A stretch of DNA of 64,000 nucleotides from Gammaproteobacteria bacterium (GTDB lineage: Bacteria; Pseudomonadota; Gammaproteobacteria; Steroidobacterales; XN24). The notes beneath the pieces were generated by a model. It was given only the letters and a program-made list of their open reading frames with translations. It had not been told where the DNA came from and did no database searches. Shown piece by piece: positions 10,006 through 35,570 of this stretch; position 1 is the first letter of the stretch; the number at the start of each line of letters is the position of its first letter. Location of the stretch: assembly GCA_047921455.1 (NCBI GenBank), contig JBLRWC010000005.1, forward strand, positions 13,157-77,156. Reading direction: 5' to 3'. A program made the position numbers and the translations under genes.

Positions 10006-10174
10006 GGAAAGTCATCAGCCTGGCGGACAGTTTCATGGGGCTAGATTACATCGAATCCGCCTGCCAGCAGCAAGATTGCCGCATTCGCCAATCACCGGCA
10101 CACGGAAAGCAACGATTGACTTGGCCGGCGGTGGCGTTGCAGCGTAATGACAAGGTAGTCACGGGCCAGCGTCA

Positions 10175-11545: not shown

Positions 11546-11554
11546 GGTGACTTG

Positions 11555-19280: not shown

Positions 19281-20716
19281 GGCAACACCCCGTTCAGCAG
19301 GGGCAACGCCCAGGGCGCCACGAAACCGAGCGCTACCGCGCCGAGCGCAAGCAGCAGCGCGGTCCACTCCATGGTCGGCGGTACATCATGGCGCTCATGC
19401 TCGTGCGGCGACTTGGTGAAAGCGAACCCGAGCACGCGGAACACGTAGGTGGCCGTCAACATCCCGCCGACAATCATGACGAAAGCCCAGAACCATGCGC
19501 CCTGCGCCATGGCGGCCTGCAGCAACATCCACTTGCCGACGAAACCACCGCTCGGCGGCAGCCCCGCCAGGCTGATACCGGCCAGCGCAAATGCAGCCAG
19601 TGTCAGCGGCATGCGCTCCACGACCCGGTCCAGCTCGGCGATTTCGTCGTGTCCGCCCTGCGTCATGATGCTGCCAGCGGCAAGGAACATCGCGCCCTTG
19701 GCGAGCGCATGCGACAGCGCCAGGTAGATCGAGCCGCCCCAGGCCAGCGCCGGATCGAGGCCGGCCAGCGGGAAAGCGACAAACAGGTAACCGAGCTGCG
19801 CTACCGTGGAGTAGGCGACCAGCAGCTTCAACCGCTTCTGGCGCAACGCCTGGATGGAGCCCCAGAACACGGCGGCCGCGCCGAGTGAACCCAGCAGCAG
19901 CGGCACACCCTGGCCTTCCGGCATAAAGGTGAACCACAGCCGCAGCAGCAGGTAGAACGAAGCCTTGACAACCAGGCCGGAAAGCAAGGCGCTGACCGGC
20001 GCCCGCGCGCTACCGTGGGCCGGCGGCAGCCATACGTGGAAAGGAAATAGCCCGGTCTTGAGCAACAGGCCCGCAATCATCGCGCCCAGCGGCACCGCGA
20101 GGGCCAGGCCACCGTCCGAGCGTTCGCCGAGCAATGCGAGGTCGAGGGTGCCGTAAGCGTGGTACAGCAAGGCCACGCCGACCAGGTAGGCCAGCGAACC
20201 CAGCAGGCTGACCAGCAGGTAGCGCATCGCACCCCACAGCGCCGGGCCGGACCCGGTCAGCGCCACCAGCGCCACGGCCGACAACCCCAGCAATTCCAGC
20301 GTCACGTAGAGGTTGAAGACGTCGCCCGCCTGGAACAGCCCGTTCAGGGCCGCCCAGAGAAACATCCAGAGCGGCCAGAAGCGACGCACTTTGTCGGGCG
20401 AACTCGCCAGGTAAACGCGCGCGTAGATGCTCACGGCGGTGCCAACCACGGCCGTCATGGCGAGCATCAGTACACTCAGACCGTCGGCCAGCAGGTCGAT
20501 GCCCAGCGGCGCGCCCCAGCCGCCCAGCCGGTAGAGCCGGGCGCCGCCGAACGCCACCTGGAGAAGGACGCCGACGACCGAGGCCGTGATCAAAAACGAC
20601 ATGCCCAGCCCGATCGGCATGGCCCGGCGCGGGAACACGAATGCGAGCAGGGCCCCGATCAGCGGCAACGCGATCGTCCACAGCATCCACGGGGCTTCGG
20701 CCAGCCACTCAAGCAT
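19277..20716 (-). CDS. mrpD: Monovalent cation/H+ antiporter subunit D-family protein (set 1, first D)
   Basis: The 479-aa ORF has YVTLELLGLSAVALV, LLLKTGLFPFHVWLPPAHGSARAPVSALLSGLVVKAS and LSHALAKGAMFLAAG. Confidence 0.85.
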   Translation of the reverse strand: MLEWLAEAPWMLWTIALPLIGALLAFVFPRRAMPIGLGMSFLITASVVGVLLQVAFGGARLYRLGGWGAPLGIDLLADGLSVLMLAMTAVVGTAVSIYARVYLASSPDKVRRFWPLWMFLWAALNGLFQAGDVFNLYVTLELLGLSAVALVALTGSGPALWGAMRYLLVSLLGSLAYLVGVALLYHAYGTLDLALLGERSDGGLALAVPLGAMIAGLLLKTGLFPFHVWLPPAHGSARAPVSALLSGLVVKASFYLLLRLWFTFMPEGQGVPLLLGSLGAAAVFWGSIQALRQKRLKLLVAYSTVAQLGYLFVAFPLAGLDPALAWGGSIYLALSHALAKGAMFLAAGSIMTQGGHDEIAELDRVVERMPLTLAAFALAGISLAGLPPSGGFVGKWMLLQAAMAQGAWFWAFVMIVGGMLTATYVFRVLGFAFTKSPHEHERHDVPPTMEWTALLLALGAVALGFVAPWALPLLNGVLP

Positions 20717-20722
20717 CGTGCT

Positions 20723-21052
20723 CTATTGCTCCTCCTCGTCCATGAGGTCGCGCTCCCGATCCTCCGGCAGCGCGGGCTTGCCGGTCGTCCTGGCGATTCC
20801 CAGCACCAGCGCCAACGCCAGCGCGGTCGCGGAAATCGCCACCACGATCCCCGTGATGACCATCGCCTGCGGCACGGGATCCACGGCATCACCGTACATC
20901 GATCCGGTGCCGGCCAGCAGCAGGAATGTACCGCTGCCCATGATGTTGATCGCCAGCACCTTGCGAATCAGGTGCGCGCGCATGACCAGGGCCCAGGCGC
21001 CGATCACCAGCAGTCCGATGCCGGCAAACGCAAACAAGGTCCCCCCGCTCAC
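20723..21052 (-). CDS. mrpC: Cation:proton antiporter subunit C (NuoK-like)
   Basis: The 109-aa, three-TM ORF has LIRKVLAINIMGSGTFLLL and QAMVITGIVVAISATALALALV. It shares an ATGA overlap with the upstream MnhB-like gene. Confidence 0.8.
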   Translation of the reverse strand: MSGGTLFAFAGIGLLVIGAWALVMRAHLIRKVLAINIMGSGTFLLLAGTGSMYGDAVDPVPQAMVITGIVVAISATALALALVLGIARTTGKPALPEDRERDLMDEEEQ

Positions 21053-21735
21053 GGCTCATCCTCCGGCCGGCCGCCGATGAACAGGCCGGCGAGAATGACG
21101 GCAATGGACAGGGTCGCGGCAGTCTCGACCAGCAGGATCAGCGCGCCGGCGTAATCGACCGGGTACTGAAGAAAGCGGCGCCCTGGCGCCATGACGAACA
21201 AGCCGACGCCAAGGAACACGGCGAGGCCGACCACTGCGCCCCAGCGCAGCGACGCATCCGGCACCCGGAGGCGTGGCCGACGGCCCGAGAGAATGTAAAG
21301 CACGCCGGCAGCGGCCAGCACCGCACCGGCCTGGAATGCCCCGCCGGGTTGCGACTTGCCGGCCCAGAGCAGGTACGCGCAAATCATCGGCACCAGCGGG
21401 ATCAGGATGCTGTTCAGTCCCAGCAGCACGGGGCTCGGGGCGGTCTCCTTGATGCGCGGCGCCGGACCGAGCGCCCAGACGCCCACCAGCGCCGCCGTCA
21501 GGACCGCAATTTCAAGCAACGTGTCGTAACCGCGGAAGTTCAGCAAGACAGCGGTCACGGGATTGTCCGCGCCGCTGCGACCGAGCTCGGCCTCGACCAC
21601 GGCCGCCAGCCCAGGGCTGGCGGGTTCAACGAGCAAGGCGAGCCCCATGCCAACCGCCGCGGCCGCGAGCAACAGCGCCACGCCCATGCGCAGGAACAAT
21701 CCCGGCTCACCGAGCGGAGAGCTAGTCGCCATCAT
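21049..21735 (-). CDS. mrpB: Na+/H+ antiporter MnhB-domain subunit
   Basis: The start is placed at ATG 21735/21732 (MMATSSPLG), overlapping the upstream stop by 14 nt. It has the MnhB signature NPVTAVLLNFRGYDTLLEIAVL and GGAFQAGAVLAA. Confidence 0.75.
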   Translation of the reverse strand: MMATSSPLGEPGLFLRMGVALLLAAAAVGMGLALLVEPASPGLAAVVEAELGRSGADNPVTAVLLNFRGYDTLLEIAVLTAALVGVWALGPAPRIKETAPSPVLLGLNSILIPLVPMICAYLLWAGKSQPGGAFQAGAVLAAAGVLYILSGRRPRLRVPDASLRWGAVVGLAVFLGVGLFVMAPGRRFLQYPVDYAGALILLVETAATLSIAVILAGLFIGGRPEDEP

Positions 21736-22024
21736 CGTCCTCCTGCTCTGTCCGCCGCGCTTTGTCGCCACCGGACGCATCGTTGTTGTGCGGCAAGCGC
21801 CCCCAGGTCGCCAGCAACAAGGCGCCGGTCAGGCCTGCGCCGATGGCCGCCTCGGCGAGCGCGACATCCGGCGCGCCGAGCCTTGCCCAGGACATGGCCA
21901 GCACCAGGCCGAAGGCGATAAACAGCACGATGCCGCGGAACAGGTCGCGACTGGCGAGCGCAGCCCATGCCAGCCACAACAGCACGGCCACGAGCAGCAT
22001 GTCGAGCATCGCACCAGCGTTCAT
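21722..22024 (-). CDS. MbhD / DUF4040-like small membrane subunit (equivalent to the MrpA C-terminal region)
   Basis: The 100-aa ORF has LDMLLVAVLLWLAWAALASRDLFRGIVLFIAFGLVLAMSWARLGAPDVALAEAAIGAGLTGALLL. It shares an ATGA overlap with mrpG. Confidence 0.7.
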   Translation of the reverse strand: MNAGAMLDMLLVAVLLWLAWAALASRDLFRGIVLFIAFGLVLAMSWARLGAPDVALAEAAIGAGLTGALLLATWGRLPHNNDASGGDKARRTEQEDDDGD

Positions 22025-22323
22025 GATGCCGTCCAGGGTTTGACGCCCCGGCGCAGGCTGGAGCGTGCGATCAGGTGCGAGGCCGTCGCCCCGGCCAGCA
22101 ACACCAGCATCCAGATCAGCAATAACTTGCCGATCACCGCCAGGGACCCGGCCTGCAGCGCAAGACCCAGCACGGTGAGCCCCAGGCCGACATTATCGGC
22201 CTTCGTCAGGGCATGCAGCCGGCTGTACACATCCGGAAAGCGCAAGAGGCCGAGCGTGCCGGCGAAAAAGAACATCGCCCCACCGACGATCAGCAACGCA
22301 CTGAACCAGTCAATCAGCGACAT
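22021..22323 (-). CDS. mrpG: Monovalent cation/H+ antiporter subunit G
   Basis: The ATG at 22323 is preceded by GGGGAGG. The protein reads MSLIDWFSALLIVGGAMFFFAGTLGLLRFPDVYSRLHALTKADNVGLGL, the classic MnhG/PhaG N-terminus. Confidence 0.8.
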   Translation of the reverse strand: MSLIDWFSALLIVGGAMFFFAGTLGLLRFPDVYSRLHALTKADNVGLGLTVLGLALQAGSLAVIGKLLLIWMLVLLAGATASHLIARSSLRRGVKPWTAS

Positions 22324-22585
22324 CGTCGCCTCCCCGGCTCCAGATCCGTTGCACGAAGGCGACCGCCGCCACTGCCGCCAGCAGCGCGAACACCAGCGCA
22401 ATATCCCGCAACGCCGGTTCGCTCATGGCCTCGGCCAGCAACAGCAGCACCGCCACCGCGGTAGTGCCGAACAACTGCGCGGCAAGCATCCGGTCCGCCG
22501 CCGTGGGCCCGCGCATGACCCGCCACAGCCCCGCGGCAAGGTTGAGCAGCAGGAAGACGGCCACGCCCAGCAGCAGCCCATTCAT
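22310..22585 (-). CDS. mrpF: Monovalent cation/H+ antiporter subunit F
   Basis: The 91-aa ORF has LLNLAAGLWRVMRGPTAADRMLAAQLFGTTAVAVLLLLA, the MrpF/PhaF pattern. Confidence 0.8.
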   Translation of the reverse strand: MNGLLLGVAVFLLLNLAAGLWRVMRGPTAADRMLAAQLFGTTAVAVLLLLAEAMSEPALRDIALVFALLAAVAAVAFVQRIWSRGGDDVAD

Positions 22586-23121
22586 GAGCTGGCCTCCGTC
22601 GCACGCTTGTCTGCCAGTTCGACGCCGAACACCGCGGCAATCCGCGGCTCGAGGTCATGCACCATGGCGCGCAGATCCCTGCGCGTATCCAGCGCGTGGA
22701 TCACCAGCTGGTCGCCCTCGAGGTCCGCGCTGAGCGTGCCGGGCAGCATACTGACGACATTCGCCAACGCCACCCGGCAAGCGCCCGGCGGCAACTGCAA
22801 GCGCTGCCGCAGCACACCGGGGTGCAACGGCATCCGGGGCTGCAGCGCCCGGATCGCCACGTCGGTGGCGCCCACCAGTGACTGGTAGGCGAAAAAGGGT
22901 ATGAAGCGCGCCATGCCGGACAGCGACAGCGGCGGGTTAGCCCACAAGACCAGGCTCAGCCAGGCCGCCAGCAGGACAATCGGCGCGCCGATCAACCAGC
23001 TGTCAGCGGCGCCCCCGGTCAGGATCCACCACAACACGGCGAACGCCACGACGCGCCGCAACCACCCCCGCCAGGCAGGAGGATCTGCCGTTCGTTGGGC
23101 CGGGGACATGTCTGCAGGCAT
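22582..23121 (-). CDS. mrpE: Na+/H+ antiporter subunit E
   Basis: This 179-aa ORF is the first gene of set 1. It has the MnhE pattern (FAVLWWILTGG...VALANVVSMLPGTLSADLEGDQLVIHALD). It shares an ATGA overlap with mrpF. Confidence 0.75.
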   Translation of the reverse strand: MPADMSPAQRTADPPAWRGWLRRVVAFAVLWWILTGGAADSWLIGAPIVLLAAWLSLVLWANPPLSLSGMARFIPFFAYQSLVGATDVAIRALQPRMPLHPGVLRQRLQLPPGACRVALANVVSMLPGTLSADLEGDQLVIHALDTRRDLRAMVHDLEPRIAAVFGVELADKRATEASS

Positions 23122-23163: not shown

Positions 23164-23904
23164 TCAGTCGCGCGAGCCCGGGTGGCCAAGAAATCCATTC
23201 AGCCCGGCGGGCAGCTTATGGCCGGCATATTCGTCCAGCACGCGCGTCGCAAAACCGGCGGCTTCCAGGTCAGCCACAACCTCCGCGGCAGGCAACAGGT
23301 CCAGTTCATGGCACTCGTCGTCGCGCCGGAAGAAATCGCCCACCCGCCGAAAGCTCGTGATGCAACGCGTCACGCGGCGCGCTTCCCGGTTTTCCTCGGC
23401 GTTCATCAACAGCACCCAGTCGCCGCCGTCCACATGCGTCTTCAGCGCCTCGCCAGTTTCCACGCGACCCGGCGCGGCCGCGTCGAACAACAACAGGCCG
23501 CCCGGCAACAACGCCGCATGTATGCGCTTGAACAGCGCGCGCAGCTGTTCGCGGGAATTGCTCTCGTCGAAGCGGTAGTTGAAACACTCGCCGACCGCGA
23601 CCACGGCGATACACGGCGGCAACTCCACCGAGAGTAGCGACTCACAGAGAAAACGCCCCTCCGGGACCCGGCGGCGCGCCATTTCAATCATGACCGGGGA
23701 AAGATCCACGCCCAGCACATCGTAGCCGGCGTTCGACACCGCCTCGGCGAGAATCCCGGTTCCGCAACCGAGATCTACGACCAGTCCGCCGCCGGTGCCG
23801 GTCGCGGCCAGATTTTGCAGCAGGACCTCGGCGGCGTTGCGGGCGAGATGCCCGAAGCCGAGGTCATGGATCCAGGACAGGTCTTCCCGGTAGGCATGGT
23901 CCAT
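23164..23904 (-). CDS. Class I SAM-dependent methyltransferase
   Basis: The ATG at 23904 is preceded by GGGGGAGG. It has SAM motif I, VVDLGCGTGILAE, followed by YDVLGVDLSPVMIEMA. Its stop is only 42 nt upstream of the mrpE start of set 1. Confidence 0.75.
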   Translation of the reverse strand: MDHAYREDLSWIHDLGFGHLARNAAEVLLQNLAATGTGGGLVVDLGCGTGILAEAVSNAGYDVLGVDLSPVMIEMARRRVPEGRFLCESLLSVELPPCIAVVAVGECFNYRFDESNSREQLRALFKRIHAALLPGGLLLFDAAAPGRVETGEALKTHVDGGDWVLLMNAEENREARRVTRCITSFRRVGDFFRRDDECHELDLLPAAEVVADLEAAGFATRVLDEYAGHKLPAGLNGFLGHPGSRD

Positions 23905-24084
23905 TCCGATGCGCCTCCCCCGCGCTGGTCGCGGCGGCGTATACACGGGAAATGCCGCCGACGCTAGCGATTATGCTCGCCTGGTTACCGCGAGAATTTG
24001 CTACCCATAATGAACTGCGCGCCATCCGGCCGCGTGCGGGTTTTCCGAAACCCGGTCGTGATCCGGCCGCCAGCCGTCACTGCT

Positions 24085-26727
24085 TCAGAGCAACGCAATG
24101 AACAGTGCCAGCAGCAGGAAGATGGCGGCGATGTTGAGCGCCATGTCACGCGCGTAGCGCTGAATGCCGCGCCGCGTCGACACCACGCCCGGGTCGGTGT
24201 CGAGCGATTCCGAGTGCGGCCACGACGAAGGATGCTGACGCAGCTCCGCAACCGCCAGCCGCGCCATGTCACGCAGCCAGCCGCCGAACGCATCGCGCCG
24301 GCGCCGCGCCAGCCGCGCCGGGATCAGCCCGGGTTCCGTCGCACCGCGTGGCGTGCTGGCCGACCCCGCGCCGTCGGCCATGGCGCGTCCTTCCCGCTCA
24401 ATGACCGGCTCCAGCCGTGCCGATACTGCGCGCACGATGTCTTCACCCCGCCGGCGGGCATCGGCGAGTTCCGCCGCCGCCTTGCTGATGACGCGCCGGG
24501 TAGGCTCGAATTCGCGATGCAACGCGGCAAACGCCGCGCGTGCCGCATCAACACCGCCGCGCCGGGCCTGTTCGTCGAGCCGCTCCAGCCGCGCCTCGAA
24601 TACGCTGCCCGCCAGCAGGCCGGCGAGTGCACGAACGGCTTGGCCCCGGGCTTCCTGCGCGTCTTCGCCCAATGCCTGCCCGGGCGCTGCGGTGCGCCTG
24701 GCCGCGGCCAGCGCGGCCCTGACCGTGGCGTAGCGTTCCTGCTCGAGCGCGCCCCAGGCCGCCTCGAGAAACACCTGCGTCGGCGAATCCGGCAAACCCA
24801 CCAGCAGGTTCTCCACAAGGTGCTGCCGGGTGCGGCCCGCCGCGCCGAGCGTCAGCAAAAAGCGGCGGCGCGCAGCGCGCAGCGCCCACGCGACCCGGTG
24901 CAGAATGCGTCCGTAAACCAGCGTGACGCCGCGGAATGCGGCCAGCGTCAGCTCGCCGAGCAGGCCGCCACTGTCGCGACTCGTGTCCCTGGCGAAAAAC
25001 GCTGCCAGGCTGCCGCCCGCCTGGACCAGCCAATACTGGATACCGAGCCACGGCGGCAGGTGCAGGTGAAACAGCCCGAACTTCATGCCGACCACGAAAA
25101 TCACGCCACCCAGCCCGAACACCAGCAACGACGTCACGATGTCGCCCGCGGAAAGAAAATAGTTCTCCAGGTAGTACGCGACGCCGTCCCCCGCTGTACC
25201 GACCATGGCCAGGCCCGGCGCCACCAGGCTCTCGAGCAGCAGCTGGGGTCGCCAGCCGAGCACGATCACCGGCACACACAGCAGGGCCATCGCGACCAGC
25301 ATGGGCCATGGCGCCTCGCGCACAGACGCCGGCTGTGCCAGCTTCGATCGGCCCAGGAATACCAGGCCGATGAGCTTGATGAACGAGGCGGCCGTGCCGG
25401 CGGCGGTCAGCAAAAAAATATGCTCCGCGAGCCGCCACGAGTCCGCGCCAGTGCCTGTATATGCCGCTTCCAGGGCGTGGTGGATCATGCTCTTGCTGAC
25501 GAAGCCATTGAACAGCGGCAGGCCGGTAATGCCCGCGGCAGCGATCAGCATGAGCAGGAAGGTCAGCGGCATGCGCCGCCAGAGGCCGCCCAGCGCGTAC
25601 ATATCGAGGCTGCCGGCACGAAACGCCACGGCGCCGACGCCAAGGAACAGGCTGGCCTTGAACAGGGCGTGATTCACGGTGTGCAGCAATCCCCCGGCCG
25701 TGCCCATGCCGCCCTCGCCGAGCAGGTAGGCGCCCGCGCCGAGCCCGGCGAGGATGAAGCCCATCTGGCTGATGCTGTGGTACGCCAGCATTCGCTTGGC
25801 ATTCGATTGGCCAAGCGCCAGCACGACGCCGAGCGCCATGGTGACGATGCCAAGCCAGGTGATCACCAGCCCGAACTGCGCAGAGAACGCCCAGGCCGCA
25901 TCGCCATAGCTGGTGCCGTGCGGCGGCGTGAACAACGCGGACAAGCTGCGGAAGATGCCGTAGGCGCCGGCCTTGATCATCACGCCGGACAACAGGGCGC
26001 TCGCCGGCGACGGCGCCACCGGGTGCGCGTTCGGCAACCAGAAGTGCACCGGCACCATGCCGGCCTTGACGCCAAAGCCGATCACCAGCAAGGCCGCAGC
26101 AGCGCCACGATAGCCGCTCACCTCGCCCAGCGGCGGCGGCGGCGGCGAGGCCAGCGGGCCGCCGCCCATGGCGTATACCAGCATGATGCCGGCGAGCAAC
26201 GCGATGCCCCCGAGCAGGGTCATCCAGAAATACTGGATGCCGGCGCGGAGCGCAGCCGGCGTGCCGGTATGCACCACCAGCAGGAAGGCGACCAGGCCGA
26301 GGGTTTCAAAGCACAGGAAGAGGGTCATGAGGTTGCCGGCCAGCACCACGCCGAGCATGGCCGCCAGCACCACGAGGCTGACCGCGTGGTAGCGGTCGCG
26401 CGCGCCCTGGGTCCGCATATAGGCCAGCGAGTAGAGCGTGGCGCAGAACCAGACGAAGGCGCTGAACAGCGCAAATAACGCGCCGAGCGGATCGGCGACA
26501 AACTCGAGCCGCCCGGCCAGCAACGGCACGCTGGCCTCGAGCCGGCCTGCACCCATGACCCGCAGCGCCAGCACGATGGTCGCCAGCAGGCTCGTACCGG
26601 TGACCAGCATCACCCAGCCGTCGCGCAGCCGCTCGGAACGTCGCCCCAGCCAGGGGACGAGCAGCGCGCCCACGATTGGCCAGGACACCAGCACAAGCAA
26701 CAGGGGCGCGTGGGTCATCGTCGCCAT
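24085..26727 (-). CDS. Antiporter-like subunit (NuoL/MrpA-like) with a C-terminal region of about 300 aa: a roughly 280-aa soluble stretch plus a terminal TM anchor; set 2, last gene
   Basis: The start is ATG 26727 or 26718, just after the upstream stop at 26735. The N-terminal ~600 aa carry FLCFETLGLVAFLLV, GFGVKAGMVPVHFWLPNAHPVAPSPASALLSGVMIKAG and TVNHALFKASLFLGVG. ORF residues ~608-890 are Ala/Arg/Glu-rich with no TM segment. The protein ends MALNIAAIFLLLALFIALL. Confidence 0.8.
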   Translation of the reverse strand: MATMTHAPLLLVLVSWPIVGALLVPWLGRRSERLRDGWVMLVTGTSLLATIVLALRVMGAGRLEASVPLLAGRLEFVADPLGALFALFSAFVWFCATLYSLAYMRTQGARDRYHAVSLVVLAAMLGVVLAGNLMTLFLCFETLGLVAFLLVVHTGTPAALRAGIQYFWMTLLGGIALLAGIMLVYAMGGGPLASPPPPPLGEVSGYRGAAAALLVIGFGVKAGMVPVHFWLPNAHPVAPSPASALLSGVMIKAGAYGIFRSLSALFTPPHGTSYGDAAWAFSAQFGLVITWLGIVTMALGVVLALGQSNAKRMLAYHSISQMGFILAGLGAGAYLLGEGGMGTAGGLLHTVNHALFKASLFLGVGAVAFRAGSLDMYALGGLWRRMPLTFLLMLIAAAGITGLPLFNGFVSKSMIHHALEAAYTGTGADSWRLAEHIFLLTAAGTAASFIKLIGLVFLGRSKLAQPASVREAPWPMLVAMALLCVPVIVLGWRPQLLLESLVAPGLAMVGTAGDGVAYYLENYFLSAGDIVTSLLVFGLGGVIFVVGMKFGLFHLHLPPWLGIQYWLVQAGGSLAAFFARDTSRDSGGLLGELTLAAFRGVTLVYGRILHRVAWALRAARRRFLLTLGAAGRTRQHLVENLLVGLPDSPTQVFLEAAWGALEQERYATVRAALAAARRTAAPGQALGEDAQEARGQAVRALAGLLAGSVFEARLERLDEQARRGGVDAARAAFAALHREFEPTRRVISKAAAELADARRRGEDIVRAVSARLEPVIEREGRAMADGAGSASTPRGATEPGLIPARLARRRRDAFGGWLRDMARLAVAELRQHPSSWPHSESLDTDPGVVSTRRGIQRYARDMALNIAAIFLLLALFIALL

Positions 26728-26734
26728 CTCGTGA

Positions 26735-28231
26735 TCATCCGGCACCGAAGAACACGGCCGCGGCGCGCACGGCCAGCGACAACGGCAGCCCCGGCGTCGC
26801 CGCCGCGATGCCAAGCAACAGGCTCAGCAGGGTAGCGACCAGCAAGGGAATCAGCATGCTGCGCGGCGCCTCGGGCCGCTGCGGCGTCGGCGCGTCCGCT
26901 GCCGGGGCATGGAAATAAGCCAGCCACACCGGTTGCAGCAGGTACAGGGCCGCCAGCAACGCCCCGCCCAGCAGGACCAGCAACACCAGCGGGTGTCCGG
27001 CCTCGAGCATGCCGACGCCCAGTACCCACTTGCTGATGAAACCGGACAGTGGCGGCACGCCGACGATCCCCAGCGCGGCGACGCTGAACGCGGCCATGGT
27101 AAGCGGCATGCGACGTGCCGCGCCCGCCATCTCCGAAACCCTGCGGATGCCCGCCTGGCTCGCCAGCAGGCCGGCGCAGAAAAACAGCGCGCCCTTGAGA
27201 AAGGCATGGTTGCTGATGTGCACCAGCGCGCCGCTCGTCACGTGCGGCGAGAGCAGCGAGATCGCCATCACGACATAGGCCATCTGGCTGATCGTGGACC
27301 AGGCCAGCCGGCGCTTCAGGTCGTCCTCGCCGGCCGCGAGGATGGCCGCCAGCAATACCGACACGGCCGCGACGCCCGTCAGGACGGGCATGACGCCCAG
27401 CAGCGACACGAGGCCGACACCGAATACCTCGAACACGACCCGCAGGATGCCGAAGCAACCCGTCGCGACCATCACGCCGGACAGCAGCGCCGAAAACGAG
27501 GCCGGCGCGGCCGGGTGCACGTCGGGCACCCAGCCGTGCAACGGCATCAACGCCGCCTTGACGCCGAAGCCCACCACCAGGCACCAGAAGGTGACCATGA
27601 GCAGCGTCCGGTCGGTGTCCGGGTCGAGCATGCCGCCGGGAGTGAACGGCTGGTCGCCGGCGAGGAAGAACGCAAAGATGACGCCCAGCAGAACCAGGCT
27701 GCCGCCGACCAGGATGTAAACGATGTACTTCGTACCCGCGCGGATGGCCTCGGGCGTCTCCTCGTGGACCACCAGCGGGTAGACCAGGATTGAGAACAGC
27801 TCGTAAAAGACCAGCAAGGTAATGAGATTGCCGGCAAAGGCGACGCCGAGCATCCAGCCGAGGCTCAGCATGAAAAACGCGTAGTAGCGGGTCTCGTGGC
27901 CATCGCGTCGCAGGTAACCGACCGAATACACCAGCGCGAGCAGGAACAGCACCGACACCGTGGCGGCAAACAAAGCTCCCATGGCGTCCACACGCAGGTA
28001 AAGCTGCACCTGCGGTGCAAAGTGCACCAGCGCCACCGCGCGGACTTCGCCCGCCAGCGCGCCTGGCACGAGGGAGAAGACCCCCAGCATTGTCGCGCAG
28101 CAGAGCGTGCCGAGCACGGCCAGCCTGCGCCGCTCGCCGTAGCGACGCAGCGGCAGCGCCAGCACCCCGCCGAGCAGGGGCAGCGCCACGACCAACGCCG
28201 GCAGCAGGCTGATCAGGGTGGTCGATGTCAT
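26735..28231 (-). CDS. mrpD: Monovalent cation/H+ antiporter subunit D-family protein (set 2, third D)
   Basis: The 498-aa ORF has LLVFYELFSILVYPLV, GFGVKAALMPLHGWVPDVHPAAPASFSALLSGVMVATG and ISNHAFLKGALFFCAG. Confidence 0.85.
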   Translation of the reverse strand: MTSTTLISLLPALVVALPLLGGVLALPLRRYGERRRLAVLGTLCCATMLGVFSLVPGALAGEVRAVALVHFAPQVQLYLRVDAMGALFAATVSVLFLLALVYSVGYLRRDGHETRYYAFFMLSLGWMLGVAFAGNLITLLVFYELFSILVYPLVVHEETPEAIRAGTKYIVYILVGGSLVLLGVIFAFFLAGDQPFTPGGMLDPDTDRTLLMVTFWCLVVGFGVKAALMPLHGWVPDVHPAAPASFSALLSGVMVATGCFGILRVVFEVFGVGLVSLLGVMPVLTGVAAVSVLLAAILAAGEDDLKRRLAWSTISQMAYVVMAISLLSPHVTSGALVHISNHAFLKGALFFCAGLLASQAGIRRVSEMAGAARRMPLTMAAFSVAALGIVGVPPLSGFISKWVLGVGMLEAGHPLVLLVLLGGALLAALYLLQPVWLAYFHAPAADAPTPQRPEAPRSMLIPLLVATLLSLLLGIAAATPGLPLSLAVRAAAVFFGAG

Positions 28232-28243
28232 ACGCTCATTCCC

Positions 28244-29719
28244 CTAGATACCGGTGACGAACTTGACCGTGGCCTGGGCCAGCGAGAACGGCATGCCCGG
28301 GATGCGCGAGGTCATACCGAGCAGCAGCACGTAAGCCGCGCTGATGAGCGTGGGCACCAGCAGCAGGGCCCTGGCCTCGTGCACGCCCCGCGGCAAGCCG
28401 CGCGGCTCACGGAACCAGGCGAGATAGAGTATGGGCAGCCAGTACGCAGCATTCAGCAGCGAACTCACCACCATCAACAGCACCCACCACCAGGCGCCGG
28501 CCTGCAGGGCGCCGAGCGACAGGAACCACTTGGTGACGAAGCCCGCGAACAACGGAATGCCGATGAAGCTCAGCGCGGCGATGGTGAACGCACCCATGGT
28601 CCAGGGCATCACTCGACCGATGCCGGCCAGTTCATGAATGTGCGTGCGGCCAGTGGTGCGCTCGATGGCGCCGGCGACAAAGAACATGGTGATCTTGGCA
28701 AACGCCTGGTTGGCGATATGCGCCACCGCGGCCAGCGCAGCCAGCGGTGTGAGCAAGGCGGCCGCGAGCACGATATACGACAGCTGGCTGACCGTGGAGT
28801 ACGCCAGTCGAAGCTTGAGCTTGCTCTGCGCCAGGGCCAGCAACGAGGCCGCAACGATCGTAAAGGCGGCAAACAACGCCAGCCAGTCCGTGTAGCCGAG
28901 CACCGCCAGCAGGTCGATGCCGAACACGTTGTAAATGACCCGCAGCAGGCCGAATACACCCGCCTTCACCACGGCGACGGCATGTAACAGCGCGCTCACG
29001 GGGACCGGTGCGATCATCGCCGTGGGCAGCCAGCCGTGCAGCGGCATGATGGCGGCCTTGACGCCGAAGCCCGCGACCAGCACGAGGAAAGTGACGAACA
29101 GCATCGGCCGGCCAGCCTCCAGCGACAACACGCCGGGCATCGATAGCGTCAAGGTCCCCGCCAGGTGCTGCACGAGCACTACGCCGAGCAGCACCGCCAC
29201 GCCGCCGGAGAGCGTATAAGCGAGGTACTTGCGGCCGGCTTTCATCGCCTCCGGCGTTTCGTCGTGGATCACCAGCGGATAGGTGCAAATGGTCAGCATT
29301 TCGTAAAACAGGAACAGGGTCAGCAGGTTTTCTGCGAATGCGAGGCCGACCGTCGTCGAGACACATAGCGCGAAGAAACCGAAAAAGCGGGCGCGCTCGT
29401 GCTGGCCCTTCATGTAGCCGATGGCATAAACGGTCGTCACCACCCACAGCGTCGAGGAAACCAGGGCGAAGAACATGCCCAGCCCGTCCGCACGAAACGC
29501 GATGCCGATGCCGGGCGGAAAGTCGATAAGGTCGTAGACATACACCGTGCCCGCGAGACTGCCCGGCAGCATGGAAAGCACGATTCCCAGCTTCGCCACC
29601 GAGGCGCCGAGCGCCAGTACGACCCGCCACAGGTCCCGCTGGCCGACCAGGAAAATGAGAATTGCGCAAACCAGTGAAAGCGCCGGCGCGAGGACGATCC
29701 TGATGTCGACGACCTCCAT
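28244..29719 (-). CDS. mrpD: Monovalent cation/H+ antiporter subunit D-family protein (set 2, second D)
   Basis: The 491-aa ORF has LFLFYEMLTICTYPLV, GFGVKAAIMPLHGWLPTAMIAPVPVSALLHAVAVVKAG and IANQAFAKITMFFVAG. It is clearly the same subtype as 17787..19280. Confidence 0.85.
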   Translation of the reverse strand: MEVVDIRIVLAPALSLVCAILIFLVGQRDLWRVVLALGASVAKLGIVLSMLPGSLAGTVYVYDLIDFPPGIGIAFRADGLGMFFALVSSTLWVVTTVYAIGYMKGQHERARFFGFFALCVSTTVGLAFAENLLTLFLFYEMLTICTYPLVIHDETPEAMKAGRKYLAYTLSGGVAVLLGVVLVQHLAGTLTLSMPGVLSLEAGRPMLFVTFLVLVAGFGVKAAIMPLHGWLPTAMIAPVPVSALLHAVAVVKAGVFGLLRVIYNVFGIDLLAVLGYTDWLALFAAFTIVAASLLALAQSKLKLRLAYSTVSQLSYIVLAAALLTPLAALAAVAHIANQAFAKITMFFVAGAIERTTGRTHIHELAGIGRVMPWTMGAFTIAALSFIGIPLFAGFVTKWFLSLGALQAGAWWWVLLMVVSSLLNAAYWLPILYLAWFREPRGLPRGVHEARALLLVPTLISAAYVLLLGMTSRIPGMPFSLAQATVKFVTGI

Positions 29720-29723
29720 GGCG

Positions 29724-31202
29724 TTATCCCCCGCTCACCAGGCGCCCGACCGCCGGCGCGATCAACATCACCGGCCAGCGCCCGAACAAGCCGCCCAGCA
29801 CGCACAACGCGGCCAGCAGCAGCACCGGCCCCAGCATGGCGGCGGGCGCCTCGCGCACCGCCAGCATCTGCTCGTGGGCAGGTGCGCGGAAATAGAAAGC
29901 ATTCAGCATGCGTCCCAGGTAGATGAACACCAGCAGTGCGCCGGCCAGCACCACGACCGCAAATCCCGGTCGCCCGGCCTCCAACGCGCCCAGCGCGATA
30001 TACCACTTGCCGAGGAAGCCCGCCGTCGGCGGCAGGCCGGTAATCGACAACGCGCCCACCAATAGCGCCAGCGTCGTCCATGGCATGACGCGGCCGATGC
30101 CGCGCAGATCGGTGAGCGTCCGGTAACCGCTCTGGTGCAGCATGGCACCGACCGCGAGAAACAACGTGGCCTTGATAAGTGCATGGTTCAGCACGTGGAT
30201 CGTGCCACCGGTCACGGCGAGTTCGCCGGCGAGTCCGAGGCCAAGCACGATATAGCCGATGTTCGAGATGGTGGAGTACGCCAGCATCAGCTTGATGTCC
30301 TCCTGGAACACGGCAAAGAATGCCCCCGCCAGGATAGAGATTGCGCCCAGCCAGGCCAGCGCTTCGTAGAGCGGCTCAAGCGACACGCCCGCCGCGGTGT
30401 CGAACAAAAAGAAGATCCGCAGCAAGCCGATGATGCCGAGCTTGACCACCAGCGCCGAGGACACGGCGTTGATCGGGGTCGGCGCAATGGCATGCGCGTC
30501 CGGCAGCCAGACATGCACGGGGAACAGGCCGGCCTTGACCATGAAGCCTGCCGTCATGCCGGCGAGGGCCAGCAGGAGCGGCGCCCGCGATTCGACCGTG
30601 GCCAGCCTGAGCGCGACGTCCGCCATGTTCAGGCTGCCGGTCAGGGCATACAGCACGCCGATGCAGAACAGGATGAGCGCCGACGACACGGCACCGGCCA
30701 TCAGGTATTTGAACGCTGCCAGCGCGGCCGTGCGACCGCCGCCCACCGCCACCAGCGCATAGCTCGAGACGGCGACCAGTTCCATGAAGACAAACAGGTT
30801 GAACAGGTCGGCGGTGACCACAAAGCCGATCATGCCGCCGAGATTGATGAGTAACAGGCTGTAGTACCAGGGGATGCGATGGGCCGGCACCGCGCGCCGC
30901 ACATAGGGGCCGGAGAAGATCACGACCAGCACCATGATGAAAGCGATGAACAGCGCCGCCGCGCTGAACTCGTCGAACACGAGCGCAATACCCCAGGGCG
31001 CCGCCCAGCCGCCCAGTTCGTACGAGAACGGCCCTTCGCGCACCACGCGCTGCGTCAAATTCGCGGTCATGAAAGTAACAGCGACGGTCACCCCCAGTGC
31101 CCAGCCACGGGCCACCCCGGGGCGCCCGCGCGCCAACACAGGCGTCAGTGCGCCGGCCACCAGGGGGACGAATGCGGCCAGTGGCAGCCAGTGCGTCATC
31201 AC
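29724..31202 (-). CDS. mrpD: Monovalent cation/H+ antiporter subunit D-family protein (set 2, first D)
   Basis: The 492-aa ORF has LFVFMELVAVSSYALV, GFMVKAGLFPVHVWLPDAHAIAPTPINAVSSALVVKLG and VLNHALIKATLFLAVG. It is the same subtype as 19277..20716. Confidence 0.85.
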   Translation of the reverse strand: MMTHWLPLAAFVPLVAGALTPVLARGRPGVARGWALGVTVAVTFMTANLTQRVVREGPFSYELGGWAAPWGIALVFDEFSAAALFIAFIMVLVVIFSGPYVRRAVPAHRIPWYYSLLLINLGGMIGFVVTADLFNLFVFMELVAVSSYALVAVGGGRTAALAAFKYLMAGAVSSALILFCIGVLYALTGSLNMADVALRLATVESRAPLLLALAGMTAGFMVKAGLFPVHVWLPDAHAIAPTPINAVSSALVVKLGIIGLLRIFFLFDTAAGVSLEPLYEALAWLGAISILAGAFFAVFQEDIKLMLAYSTISNIGYIVLGLGLAGELAVTGGTIHVLNHALIKATLFLAVGAMLHQSGYRTLTDLRGIGRVMPWTTLALLVGALSITGLPPTAGFLGKWYIALGALEAGRPGFAVVVLAGALLVFIYLGRMLNAFYFRAPAHEQMLAVREAPAAMLGPVLLLAALCVLGGLFGRWPVMLIAPAVGRLVSGG

Positions 31203-31558
31203 TCCGCGCCTTTCAGTTCATCCGCCTCGATGGTGCCGCATTGCCGGTAGATCTCGATGATGAGACTCAGGGCCAGCGCAGTGACGCTGACAGCCACCAC
31301 GATGCCCGTCAGGATCAGGGCATGCGGCAGGGGACTTGCGAAGGGGCCGGTCGCGCCAGCGCTGGTGATGGGCGCTGTACCGCCATCGACCATGCCGGCC
31401 GTGACGATGAAGGCGAATACCGCCGTCTCCATGATGTTGAGACCCAGCAATTTCTTGATGAGATTCTGCTTGGCCAGGATGATGTACAGGCCAATGCAGA
31501 ACAACACGACGAACGCGACATAATCGATGTTGAACCACAGGCCAGCCACGTCAGTCAC
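31199..31558 (-). CDS. mrpC: Cation:proton antiporter subunit C (NuoK-like)
   Basis: The start is placed at GTG 31558, overlapping the upstream stop; GTG 31549 is an alternative. It has LIKKLLGLNIMETAVFAFIV and HALILTGIVVAVSVTALALSLI. Confidence 0.75.
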   Translation of the reverse strand: MTDVAGLWFNIDYVAFVVLFCIGLYIILAKQNLIKKLLGLNIMETAVFAFIVTAGMVDGGTAPITSAGATGPFASPLPHALILTGIVVAVSVTALALSLIIEIYRQCGTIEADELKGAE

Positions 31559-32270
31559 CCCGCATTTCGAGGAACAGGCCGAGGATAATGGCCCCGCCGC
31601 CAACGCCGATGCCGAGTTCCAGCGTGATCATCATCAATTCCCGCAGCAGGTGTTGCCCGGGATCATCCGGATAACCCAGCAGCGCGCCGGTCAGCGCCAG
31701 CCCGAGCAGGCCGACGACCAGGAAGGCGAGCGGCCCGGCGACCTGCAGCCAGCGCGCGATCGCCACGGGGATCAGCGGCTGCTGCGCGTCCCGTCCCAGC
31801 ACGACGCTAAGCAGCACCAGCAGCGCGCCGAGAATCACGCCGCCCTGGAACCCGCCCCCCGGCGCAAGATGGCCCTTGAAGATGACGAAGGCGCCGAACG
31901 CCGCAATGAAGGGCGCGGTGATCCGGATGATGAAGGACACCACGGGACTGATCGTTACTCGCTCTGCGGCCGCGGGCCCGGCACCCTCGCCTCGCGCGCT
32001 ACCTGGGGTCGACAGCACCGCCATGACGGCGGCCAGCGCGACAAAAATAATCATGACCTCGCCGAACGTGTCGAAGGCCCGGTAATTCAGCAGCACCGCG
32101 GTCACCAGGTTGTCCGCGCCGGTCTCCCGCGCGCCTGCCTCGATGTAGTGGGCAGCCACATGCGTGTGGACCGGCGCGGCCGGGTCTCCCGGTCGCGGCA
32201 GCGCCATCACCCCGGCCAGCATGGGTATCGCTGCCGCGGCGACTGTCAGCGCGATCAACGGCTTCTTCAT
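31551..32270 (-). CDS. mrpB: Na+/H+ antiporter MnhB-domain subunit
   Basis: The ATG at 32270 (MKKPLIALTV) forms an ATGA overlap with the upstream gene. It has NLVTAVLLNYRAFDTFGEVMIIF and GGGFQGGVILGA. Confidence 0.75.
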   Translation of the reverse strand: MKKPLIALTVAAAAIPMLAGVMALPRPGDPAAPVHTHVAAHYIEAGARETGADNLVTAVLLNYRAFDTFGEVMIIFVALAAVMAVLSTPGSARGEGAGPAAAERVTISPVVSFIIRITAPFIAAFGAFVIFKGHLAPGGGFQGGVILGALLVLLSVVLGRDAQQPLIPVAIARWLQVAGPLAFLVVGLLGLALTGALLGYPDDPGQHLLRELMMITLELGIGVGGGAIILGLFLEMRGD

Positions 32271-32509
32271 TTTTCGTGCCTCCGCGTGCGCCCGATGGCA
32301 AGCAGCACAAGGATGGTCGTGACGCCCGCCCCGATCGCTGCTTCGGTCATGGCGACGTCCGGCGCGCCCCGGTGCTGCCAAAGCACGCACATGACGAGGC
32401 TGTAACCCGAAAAAATAATCGCTGCCGCCACCAGGTTCTTGCTGCGCGCTACCGCGAGTGCCATGGCGATCAGCAACGCAAGCATCACGAGGTCGAAAAA
32501 CTCGCTCAT
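32267..32509 (-). CDS. MbhD / DUF4040-like small membrane subunit
   Basis: The ATG at 32509 is preceded by GGAGAG. The protein reads MSEFFDLVMLALLIAMALAVARSKNLVAAAIIFSGYSLVMCVLWQHRGAPDVAMTEAAIGAGVTTILVLL and is a paralogue of 21722..22024. Confidence 0.7.
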   Translation of the reverse strand: MSEFFDLVMLALLIAMALAVARSKNLVAAAIIFSGYSLVMCVLWQHRGAPDVAMTEAAIGAGVTTILVLLAIGRTRRHEK

Positions 32510-32826
32510 TCTTTCTCTCCCGGTCCACGCCAGGGCTGCAGGCCGGTGTTGTATGCCGCGCGGGCGAGCGCGTGCCCGGATGTCGGGCTGGATAACAACA
32601 CCAGCACCAGCAGGACAATGATTTTCAGGGCGTCGGCCTGCGGCGCCACGTAAATTGCCAGCGCCACCAGGATCGCGCCTGCGCCAACCGTGTCGCACTT
32701 GGTGGCGGCATGGACCCTCGAGTAGAAATCCGGCAGGCGTAGCAGGCCGAGCGTTCCGGTGAGGAAAAACAGCGCGCCCCCCACTCCGAGCAGCAGGGTC
32801 GCGACCATGACGAACGTGTCGCTCAT
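32506..32826 (-). CDS. mrpG: Monovalent cation/H+ antiporter subunit G
   Basis: The ATG at 32826 forms an ATGA overlap with the mrpF stop. It has LLLGVGGALFFLTGTLGLLRLPDFYSRVHAATKCDTVGAG. Confidence 0.8.
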   Translation of the reverse strand: MSDTFVMVATLLLGVGGALFFLTGTLGLLRLPDFYSRVHAATKCDTVGAGAILVALAIYVAPQADALKIIVLLVLVLLSSPTSGHALARAAYNTGLQPWRGPGEKE

Positions 32827-33101
32827 CGTTGCCAGTCCCCCTTCAGCCGGCCGGTCTCCAGGAAGCGCGTCGCCGCGATAGTGATGCCGAAATTCAACAG
32901 GCCATACACCAGGGCGACGTCGAGCAACAGGCTGCGCTCGAAAGCGAGACCAAGCAGTACCAGGACCACCAGCACCTTGGTGCAAACGACATTCGTTGCC
33001 AGGATGCGGTCCACCACGGTGGGGCCGGCAAAGGCGCGCCACAGGCAGGCGAACGCGTTAATCAACAGGAAACTTGCCAGGCTCCAAAAAAAAACCGTCA
33101 C
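32823..33101 (-). CDS. mrpF: Monovalent cation/H+ antiporter subunit F
   Basis: The 92-aa ORF has LLINAFACLWRAFAGPTVVDRILATNVVCTKVLVVLVLL. Confidence 0.8.
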   Translation of the reverse strand: MTVFFWSLASFLLINAFACLWRAFAGPTVVDRILATNVVCTKVLVVLVLLGLAFERSLLLDVALVYGLLNFGITIAATRFLETGRLKGDWQR

Positions 33102-33664
33102 GCCCCTTCCCCCTGCTCGAAGACCTCGGCGACGCGTCGCTCGAGCTCACCACTAAGGATTCGTTCGACGGATTCCTCATCGAGACAGTGCACCAGGAAA
33201 TCGCTGCCAGAGACGTCTACCGTCAGCGTGCCGGGCGTCAACGAGACGGAATGCGCAAACGCGATGCGCGAGACTTCGCGTTGCAGCTGCGTGCGGCAGA
33301 CAAACAGGCGCGGTTCGATCGGCAGGCGCGGATTCATGACGATGAGGGCGACATGAATGGCCGAATGCAGCACCTGCAAGCTGAAGCGCGCCAGGTAGCG
33401 CAACAAGGCCAGGGACTCCCGCAGCGAAATGCCTGGCGCCTGCCCGGCCCACAGGAAGCGCGCCGACCACCAGCCCAGCAGCAACGACAGCACTGCGCCC
33501 ACGGCAACATCGACCGGCGCAAGCGAGGCCGAGATCACCAGCCAGAATACAAACACGAGCGCACTGACCCCTAGCGTGTGGGGCGCCCGCACGCCGGAAT
33601 TCCAGGCGCCCGGGTCCGGCGACCCGCGCGCGTCCTGCCGGACAGGTCTCCCGCTTGCTTTCAT
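33098..33664 (-). CDS. mrpE: Na+/H+ antiporter subunit E
   Basis: This 188-aa ORF is the first gene of set 2. It has ALVFVFWLVISASL...IAFAHSVSLTPGTLTVDVSGSDFLVHCLD, parallel to set-1 MrpE. The exact start is uncertain. Confidence 0.7.
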   Translation of the reverse strand: MKASGRPVRQDARGSPDPGAWNSGVRAPHTLGVSALVFVFWLVISASLAPVDVAVGAVLSLLLGWWSARFLWAGQAPGISLRESLALLRYLARFSLQVLHSAIHVALIVMNPRLPIEPRLFVCRTQLQREVSRIAFAHSVSLTPGTLTVDVSGSDFLVHCLDEESVERILSGELERRVAEVFEQGEGA

Positions 33665-35420: not shown

Positions 35421-35570
35421 TTGAGCCGCCCACGGAGCAAAAAGAGTGCGTATTCTAAGGGATGGGGCCGCCGTGCGCGCGCTCCCTGCCCTGCCGGGCG
35501 CCACCACGCATCCATGCGGCAGTGCGATTCGAATTATCATTGGCCCCGGACGACTACGGAGAATCATTTA

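Follow-up and report, generated by a model that had tools for sequence, protein, structure and literature searches.

The DNA analysed here, referred to as the window, is a 64,000-nucleotide stretch from a gammaproteobacterium of the XN24 lineage (assembly GCA_047921455.1, contig JBLRWC010000005.1, positions 13,157 to 77,156 of the forward strand). It contains a cluster of Mrp-type antiporter genes, set 2, whose last gene encodes an L-like subunit with a long C-terminal connector. The gene lies in a minus-strand open reading frame (ORF) spanning 24085..26814, in which the likely start ATG at 26727 gives a protein of 880 aa; the database copy, P0006, starts three codons later and has 877 aa. An earlier note, made from the sequence alone, had described about 280 residues of Ala/Arg/Glu-rich non-membrane sequence between the antiporter core and one terminal transmembrane (TM) helix. 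Hydropathy and composition bear this out, and all the peptide strings quoted in that note are present in the translation. We consider it likely that the connector is a NuoL/MrpA-type clamp into which an accessory module of ~190 residues, containing a folded helical bundle, has been inserted, rather than a clamp of longer reach. The parts of the gene are listed below; AF2 denotes AlphaFold2 models, pLDDT their predicted local distance difference test score, HL the lateral amphipathic helix and dN/dS the ratio of nonsynonymous to synonymous substitution rates.

24085..26727, minus strand: L-like subunit gene, last gene of set 2 (880 aa, likely start ATG at 26727)
25080..26727, minus strand: antiporter-like core, TM1-14 and TM15 (aa 1-549; PF00361, AF2, Foldseek)
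24802..25079, minus strand: proximal connector (aa 550-642), with helix 563-580, a variable loop and the basic amphipathic helix 589-642, HL-N (AF2)
24784..24801, minus strand: hinge G-L-P-D-S-P (aa 643-648; family consensus GAPGxx), a break between helices 589-642 and 649-679
24361..24783, minus strand: four-helix bundle (aa 649-789; AF2, conservation, dN/dS)
24307..24360, minus strand: disordered linker (aa 790-807; pLDDT <50)
24145..24306, minus strand: distal connector (aa 808-861), with amphipathic helix 808-830 (HL-C), the AELRQHPSSWP break and helix 846-859 (AF2)
24085..24144, minus strand: terminal TM helix, the TM16 equivalent (aa 862-880), and stop codon (Kyte-Doolittle 2.79; AF2 helix 862-879)

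A Kyte-Doolittle scan with a 19-residue window showed hydrophobic segments up to aa 530-548 and none of at least 1.4 again until aa 862-880 (2.79), which leaves ~310 residues without a TM segment between TM15 and the terminal helix. The interval 24085-24993 singled out in the earlier note covers aa 579-880 and the stop codon; in it, 283 non-TM residues precede the terminal TM helix. Over aa 575-861 the composition is A 19.5%, R 15.7%, L 11.1%, G 9.1% and E 7.0%, there are 45 Arg but a single Lys, and the net charge is +12. The full-length protein was modelled with AF2 as a single chain from a 115-sequence alignment (mean pLDDT 85.7), and a second run on the tail alone returned the same structural elements. 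In both runs the four helices of the bundle (649-679, 688-737, 740-759 and 765-789) have a pLDDT of 92-98 and are predicted to form a compact intramolecular helical bundle with no long stalk.

The segments of the connector behave differently across the family, which includes short forms with a connector of only ~100 aa, described below. The proximal connector ranges from 30 to 71 aa, and most of it is kept in the short forms. Its HL-N helix is strongly basic, as expected of an interfacial amphipathic helix, with a net charge of +7 here and a family mean of +6.5; its pLDDT, 55-80 in the full-length model, reaches as much as 92 when the tail is modelled alone. In close gammaproteobacterial relatives, helix 563-580 is separated from the long lateral helix by an additional ~28-40 residues (e.g. 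GSQLGHGRPGAHFLATVGGISKGYERAQQQ), at a position where the window protein has only aa 581-588 (about 24964-24987; columns 335-362 of alignment A1). The hinge loop is always 6 residues long, with G644 and P646 conserved in 97% and 92% of the family. The bundle, 122-166 aa in length and roughly neutral in charge (0.1 +/- 2.6), has the near-invariant residues R665, R670, R699, R713, R744, R758, G761 and E779 together with heptad-like hydrophobic positions. The linker that follows is poorly conserved and ranges from 6 to 98 aa. Conserved residues of the distal connector are W817, R823, R852, R857, Y858, R860 and D861; its helix 846-859, with an IQRYARD motif, runs into TM16, and aa ~824-861 are common to long and short forms. 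The same is true of N865 and the LNIAxIFLL motif of TM16, whose pLDDT is ~50.

The core is that of a normal antiporter-like subunit, as the earlier note had proposed. PF00361 (Proton_antipo_M) matches aa 130-418 with an E-value of 3.1e-51. Among 115 homologues E141, K221 and K252 are invariant and K412 is conserved in >90%, and these residues correspond to the TM5 Glu, TM7 Lys, TM8 Lys/His and TM12 Lys when helices are assigned from motif context and the AF2 helices rather than from a structure-based alignment. The core model, with pLDDT mostly >90, has the fourteen-TM fold with a discontinuous TM7 and TM12 (breaks at 222-240 and 401-407) and an N-terminal beta-hairpin (strands 63-69 and 72-78). 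Foldseek comparison of the full model with the PDB gave MrpA, NuoL and MbhH as best matches (E ~1e-22 to 1e-20) and also returned NdhF and HycC, all through the core, with target-normalised TM-scores of 0.86-0.89 against MbhH and MrpD chains. The best PDB match by sequence is MbhH (6cfw_H, E 4e-55). NCBIfam models for MrpD, HyfB, MrpA and NuoL match the protein below their equivalog cut-offs, the MrpA models far below.

After the core, the order TM15 (527-549), basic amphipathic helices (589-642 and 808-859) and terminal TM helix (862-880) is that of TM15-HL-TM16 in NuoL and MrpA; the likeness to the NuoL lateral helix plus TM16 suggested in the earlier note is thus supported by sequence and AF2. 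The protein is not MrpA proper. It stops right after TM16, where MrpA continues into a fused MrpB-like part (TM17-21), and the MrpB-like parts are encoded here by separate genes, MbhD (PF13244) and MbhE/MnhB (PF20501/PF04039).

The earlier note had recognised the segment as no named domain, and our searches agree. Neither Pfam nor NCBIfam matched the tail, and 19 diverse tails scanned singly against Pfam also gave nothing. Phmmer and profile searches against all PDB sequences returned nothing with an E-value below 0.4. Foldseek of the tail model against the PDB reached a best E-value of 0.11 with generic helical bundles only; those matches (talin rod, designed repeats, V-ATPase c-ring and LTC4 synthase, all E >= 0.1) were rejected as homology. 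A HMMER search of 1.84 billion representative proteins with the tail profile gave 36 matches at E <= 0.001. Four of these had been retrieved before, including three full-length members of 880-902 aa. Four newly found proteins of >800 aa were scanned with Pfam, and P0137, P0141 and P0152 have a PF00361 core with the match at the C-terminus; the fourth, P0153 (1460 aa), lacks PF00361, is of low complexity and has weak Pfam matches scattered along it, and was discarded as a false match. Most of the remaining matches are shorter proteins aligning to the end of the profile, as C-terminal pieces would. By these searches the bundle is an orphan domain, apparently confined to the C-terminus of this L-subunit family, and our literature searches turned up no account of an insertion or folded domain within the lateral helix of Mrp-like subunits.

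The long form is widespread and conserved. A search with the full-length protein gave 1310 matches, and among the best 120 nearly all are 840-940 aa long, with 96-100% query coverage and 45-93% identity. A single ORF of 840-940 aa is kept in >110 protein clusters, which come from Gammaproteobacteria and Actinobacteria. An apparent extreme rarity of the tail, based on a tail-only word-indexed search with 5 matches, was dismissed once the full-length search had shown these >110 clusters. Members include Wenzhouxiangella sp. XN24, Thioalkalivibrio sp. XN8 and many metagenome-assembled genomes (MAGs) of Coriobacteriia/Anaerosomatales, and their database names are generic only ("complex I subunit 5 family protein", "hydrogenase-4 component B"). 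The tail has a column conservation of 0.5-0.6, similar to that of the less conserved parts of the core. When the window gene was compared with four relatives at ~75% identity, dN/dS was 0.18-0.23 for the core and 0.27-0.35 for the tail overall; within the tail it was 0.24-0.32 for the bundle (aa 643-792), 0.11-0.23 for aa 808-880 and 0.52-0.59 for aa 561-642, the fastest-evolving region. The tail and the bundle are under purifying selection.

One MAG copy, at 9248-11554 of locus L005 (768-aa ORF), looked like a form of intermediate length. It is in fact a long form without core residues ~73-169 and with an intact tail, so that it was set aside as an intermediate. Where bundle helix 2 starts, it also repeats 13 residues in tandem (ARQDKDAREARVE x2), and it is probably an assembly artefact or a decaying copy.

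The genes of set 2 upstream of the L-like subunit are the following.

33098-33664, minus strand: MrpE (PF01899)
32823-33101, minus strand: MrpF (PF04066)
within 32506-33042, minus strand: MrpG (PF03334)
within 32267-32698, minus strand: MbhD (PF13244)
within 31551-32618, minus strand: MbhE/MnhB (PF20501/PF04039)
31199-31603, minus strand: MrpC/NuoK-like subunit (PF00420)
31199..33664, minus strand: the small subunits together (Pfam matches)
29724-31202, minus strand: MrpD-like subunit D2a (PF00361)
28244-29719, minus strand: MrpD-like subunit D2b (PF00361)
26735-28231, minus strand: MrpD-like subunit D2c (PF00361)

All are co-directional with the L-like gene, in the order E-F-G-MbhD-MbhE/B-C-D-D-D-L over 24085-33664. 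PF00361 occurs four times, with E-values of 1e-50 to 7e-62 for the three MrpD-like subunits (26735..31202), and the Pfam matches confirm the L-like subunit as the last gene of a four-subunit set made of three MrpD-like subunits and one L-like subunit. The cluster holds MrpE, F, G, B-like, C, D and A/L-like genes together, as in Mrp-type (CPA3) operons, and no redox-module genes were found at it, nor does any hydrogenase or sulfane reductase module adjoin it. Because of this gene content and order and the lack of redox-module genes, set 2 is predicted to be a stand-alone Mrp-type cation/proton antiporter cluster with Mbh-like gene order. Scanning GTDB genomes yielded 19 loci, from Gammaproteobacteria and Actinobacteria. 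The long protein is preceded by E-F-G-B-C-D-D-D in all 14 loci with the upstream set on the contig, two of which (L006 and L018) have one gene split by an apparent frameshift.

The short forms show what the extra length is not needed for. Clusters P0005, P0071 (676 aa) and P0108 (672 aa) have the same core, a connector of ~100 aa and the distal motif AELRxxPxxW ... IQRYARD-LNIAxIFLL. By alignment they lack aa ~636-823, that is, the end of HL-N, the hinge, the bundle, the linker and the start of helix 808-830. The operons of P0071 and P0108 are E-F-G-MbhD-MbhE/B-C-D-D-D-L, identical to those of the long form. As a connector of ~100 aa occurs in the same D-D-D-L operons, the extra length is not needed to span four subunits. 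It appears from these alignments that ~100 residues suffice for the clamp and that the remaining ~190 represent an inserted domain. In a core tree built by neighbour joining (NJ), with paralogues as the root, the short forms are nested among gammaproteobacterial long forms, and they fall inside the long-form clade in 100/100 bootstraps; gammaproteobacterial monophyly, recovered in 10/100, is uninformative, as most sequences are without taxonomy. Since the insert is homologous between both phyla and the short forms are nested in the long-form clade, the short form is best read as a secondary deletion. The insert would then be ancestral to the family and lost secondarily in one gammaproteobacterial lineage, with the subunit content unchanged. 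The MrpD-like subunit adjoining L is 11-15 aa longer in short-form operons (L022:5782-7323 and L024:3841-5370) than in the window (26735-28231), with small insertions in two loops of predicted cytoplasmic location, TM3-4 and TM13-14. The added length could compensate for the absent bundle or be lineage noise.

All the above suggest the following arrangement. The connector would be a C-terminal clamp made of TM15, the HL and TM16, and the clamp proper would comprise the basic helix 589-635 and residues 824-861 (~100 residues) as a two-part HL. By homology we infer that the HL runs along the cytoplasmic face of the three MrpD-like subunits, and TM16 would dock at the MrpC/MbhD end, consistent with the gene order. 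In solved Mrp structures the HL joins TMH15 to TMH16 and, on the cytoplasmic side, connects the TMH7s (PMC7419157). The HL is longer the more antiporter-like subunits there are (PMC8165549), with ~26 aa added per extra subunit (PMC9040806, citing Chadwick et al. 2018). The figure of ~100 residues for the clamp fits these reports. The inserted module of ~190 residues would consist of a GxPGSP hinge, the autonomous ~140-residue bundle (aa 649-789) and the flexible variable linker. The bundle would leave the membrane surface at the hinge, project into the cytoplasm and return through the slack linker, and its most likely role would be that of a cytoplasmic cap, brace or interaction surface on the MrpD array.

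Several points weigh against this arrangement or parts of it. Where the bundle sits relative to the D subunits, and where TM16 docks, is deduced from homology and single-chain models. AF2 confidence is low (43-75) for HL-N, HL-C and TM16, as would be expected when the partner subunits are left out of the model. The estimate of ~100 residues for spanning three subunits presumes a mostly helical connector, and the root of the tree depends on outgroups made of paralogues and on NJ alone. Finally, "brace" or "cap" is a default reading, and near-invariant Arg residues in a neutral domain could mark a ligand or partner site.

The earlier note had offered a much longer clamp spanning four subunits, and the whole ~310-residue connector might be one extended clamp whose length is needed to cross three extra antiporter-like subunits. 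The scaling of HL length with subunit number (PMC8165549), the HL insertions that go with extra subunits in 2M complex I (PMC9040806) and the constant association of the long form with D-D-D-L all agree with such a clamp. It is already contradicted by the short forms in the same operons, and the reported increment of just ~26 aa per subunit (PMC9040806), the folding of aa 649-789 into a compact bundle rather than an extended helix, and the tolerance of a disordered linker of 6-98 aa also argue against it. The idea therefore did not survive in that form, and we regard it as very improbable. By helix packing, the bundle might also join two antiporter complexes into an oligomer or make contact with the set-1 complex next to it. 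The heptad-like periodicity of its long helices, the known dimerisation of Mrp complexes (PMC7419157) and the adjacency of sets 1 and 2 in gammaproteobacteria are in favour. However, AF2 with monomer input gives a closed intramolecular bundle at very high confidence, actinobacterial loci keep the bundle without set 1 nearby, and the known Mrp dimer interface lies at the MrpE end and not at the distal antiporter-like subunits (PMC7419157), so that this appears quite improbable. There remains the technical explanation, also raised in the earlier note, that a frameshift or misassembly has fused an antiporter gene to a downstream gene. The related metagenomic contig L001 does split the gene into pieces of 384 and 516 aa, and long spurious opposite-strand ORFs are common in this 67% GC DNA. 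Yet L001 is fragmented throughout, as is typical of assembly errors; >110 independent clusters, isolates among them, cover 96-100% of the query as one protein; the tail is under purifying selection; and the terminal TM helix and IQRYARD motif are common to the short forms. A fusion is rejected because a single continuous ORF is conserved at genome loci of two phyla, and we give it a negligible chance.

A regulatory or docking role is suggested as the main alternative to a cap or brace; a docking platform for a soluble partner, like a coiled-coil stalk, had been among the ideas of the earlier note. The bundle would be a module binding a cytoplasmic partner or a small anionic ligand and modulating the antiporter; the partner could be the cytoplasmic domain of an actinobacterial membrane protein with a degenerate GGDEF domain, and the ligand could be a nucleotide second messenger. 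Six near-invariant Arg residues (R665, R670, R699, R713, R744 and R758) in a domain of net charge ~0 fit such a role, as do the autonomy of the domain, tethered by a hinge and a flexible linker, the dispensability of the bundle for the subunit set and the overlap of the degenerate-GGDEF gene with the mrpE start by 4 nt in 4/4 actinobacterial loci examined. On the other side, no gene accompanies the bundle as a partner across both phyla, the operon lacks a GGDEF gene in gammaproteobacterial loci, the conserved gammaproteobacterial methyltransferase neighbour adjoins short forms too, and Pfam, PDB sequence and Foldseek searches detected no known ligand-binding fold or motif in the bundle. We hold this role to be unlikely. 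A more specific version, in which the bundle is a cytoplasmic sensor or docking domain whose Arg cluster binds a partner or an anionic second messenger and tunes the four-pump array from the middle of the HL, is rather unlikely as well; in Actinobacteria it could be linked to the co-operonic degenerate-GGDEF protein.

The actinobacterial long-form operon opens with that membrane protein of ~300 aa, in which the GGDEF motif is degenerate (GADTF, GAATF, GSESF or DETTF). The genes are at:

L009:1021-1929, plus strand: degenerate-GGDEF protein
L011:1037-1969, plus strand: degenerate-GGDEF protein
L013:1053-1937, plus strand: degenerate-GGDEF protein
L012:68-1102, plus strand: degenerate-GGDEF protein

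The protein retains an RxxD I-site 5 residues upstream of the motif, and its stop codon overlaps the mrpE start by 4 nt. An active diguanylate cyclase is ruled out by the degenerate motif; on these motifs the protein may be a c-di-GMP receptor co-translated with the antiporter. The downstream genes of the actinobacterial loci are not conserved and yielded no co-encoded soluble partner of the bundle.

The surroundings of set 2 in the window are as follows.

23164-23946, minus strand: SAM (S-adenosylmethionine)-methyltransferase, downstream of set 2
14492-23121: second Mrp-like set (set 1), downstream of set 2
33801-35567, minus strand: AbgT-family transporter, directly upstream of set 2

Every gammaproteobacterial locus that extends downstream past the L gene of set 2 (L002, L003, L004, L007, L008, L019 and L024) has a class I SAM-methyltransferase between the two sets; in L002 and L019 the methyltransferase and set 1 both follow, and in L024, a short-form locus, the same methyltransferase follows the operon. 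Because it adjoins long and short forms alike, the methyltransferase does not track with the bundle and was rejected as its partner. The AbgT gene upstream of set 2 is also found in L001, L003 and L004 (89-90% identity), that is, in 3/5 related gammaproteobacterial long-form loci covering the region upstream of mrpE, with no match in L005 and L006. Set 1 ends in two subunits, each with a C-terminal amphipathic stretch and a terminal TM helix. X1 (16231-17790, minus strand, 519 aa) has no Pfam or NCBIfam match, is 27% identical to L1 (E 2e-14) and has a degenerate TM7 Lys motif; L1 (14492-16234, minus strand, 580 aa) carries PF00361. Together they would mean two lateral-helix-bearing subunits in one Mrp-like set.

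Among known systems, MrpA (Anoxybacillus flavithermus 6z16, Bacillus pseudofirmus 7qru) is the closest structural match to the L-like subunit (Foldseek E ~1e-22; PDB sequence E 1e-47), with a 14-TM core, TM15, a lateral helix and a TM16 that brace MrpD, and Mrp antiporters share with set 2 the subunits E, F, G, B-like, C and D. Unlike in MrpA, the HL of the L-like subunit must pass three MrpD-like subunits instead of one and carries a ~190-aa insertion with a folded bundle, the MrpB-like TM domain is split off as the MbhD and MbhE/MnhB genes, and the gene order is EFG-B-C-DDD-L instead of ABCDEFG. NuoL/Nqo12/ND5 of complex I also has a TM15-HL-TM16 clamp over the other antiporter-like subunits, on the cytoplasmic or matrix side, whereas the set-2 complex would have no redox module. 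The 26-aa HL insertion of NuoL in "2M" complex I is a precedent for HL lengthening with a fourth pumping subunit (PMC8165549 and PMC9040806). Such extensions in complex I are short helical increments of ~26 aa, none a folded domain, unlike the insertion in the L-like subunit; it is the short form, with its ~100-aa connector, that truly corresponds to the 2M-type extension, and the long form exceeds it. The Mrp-like module in MBH of Pyrococcus furiosus (MbhH/MbhI, 6cfw) and in MBS (MbsH', 6u8y) has the same gene order as set 2 (E, F, G, MbhD, MbhE, C-like, D-like), but in MBH the lateral helix belongs to MbhI, a small subunit of its own, and extends over just one antiporter-like subunit (PMC8165549). 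Operons of the MrpEFGBBCDD type belong to "group 3" Mrp, with irregular order and several mrpD copies (group 3 as defined in PMC5703873), examples being those of the Solemya velum symbiont (PMC4287430) and NPL-UPA2 (PMC6305446). These reports are annotation-level only, and none describes a terminal L-like subunit or a lateral-helix insertion. What is new here is a known clamp type carrying an undescribed, family-restricted domain, in an operon type already mentioned at annotation level.

Whether the lateral helix of NuoL and MrpA is a coupling rod or a passive brace is an old debate, and the literature views it as one unbroken helix that lengthens with the number of pumping subunits. The long form is a natural, conserved variant in which the HL is interrupted mid-way by a folded 140-residue domain and a floppy linker, and the pair of long and short forms with the same four-pump gene set is a ready-made comparison for the contribution of HL continuity. 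If the bundle did tune the array through its Arg cluster, this would be the first case of the HL as a regulatory input site rather than a passive brace. The bundle also defines an orphan domain family that is a candidate for domain databases. As the long form occurs in the named strains XN24 and XN8, purification of the complex from a native host is conceivable if cultures of them can be had. By inference from subunit number, four antiporter-like subunits in a stand-alone Mrp complex would imply a high H+/Na+ ratio, useful at alkaline pH.

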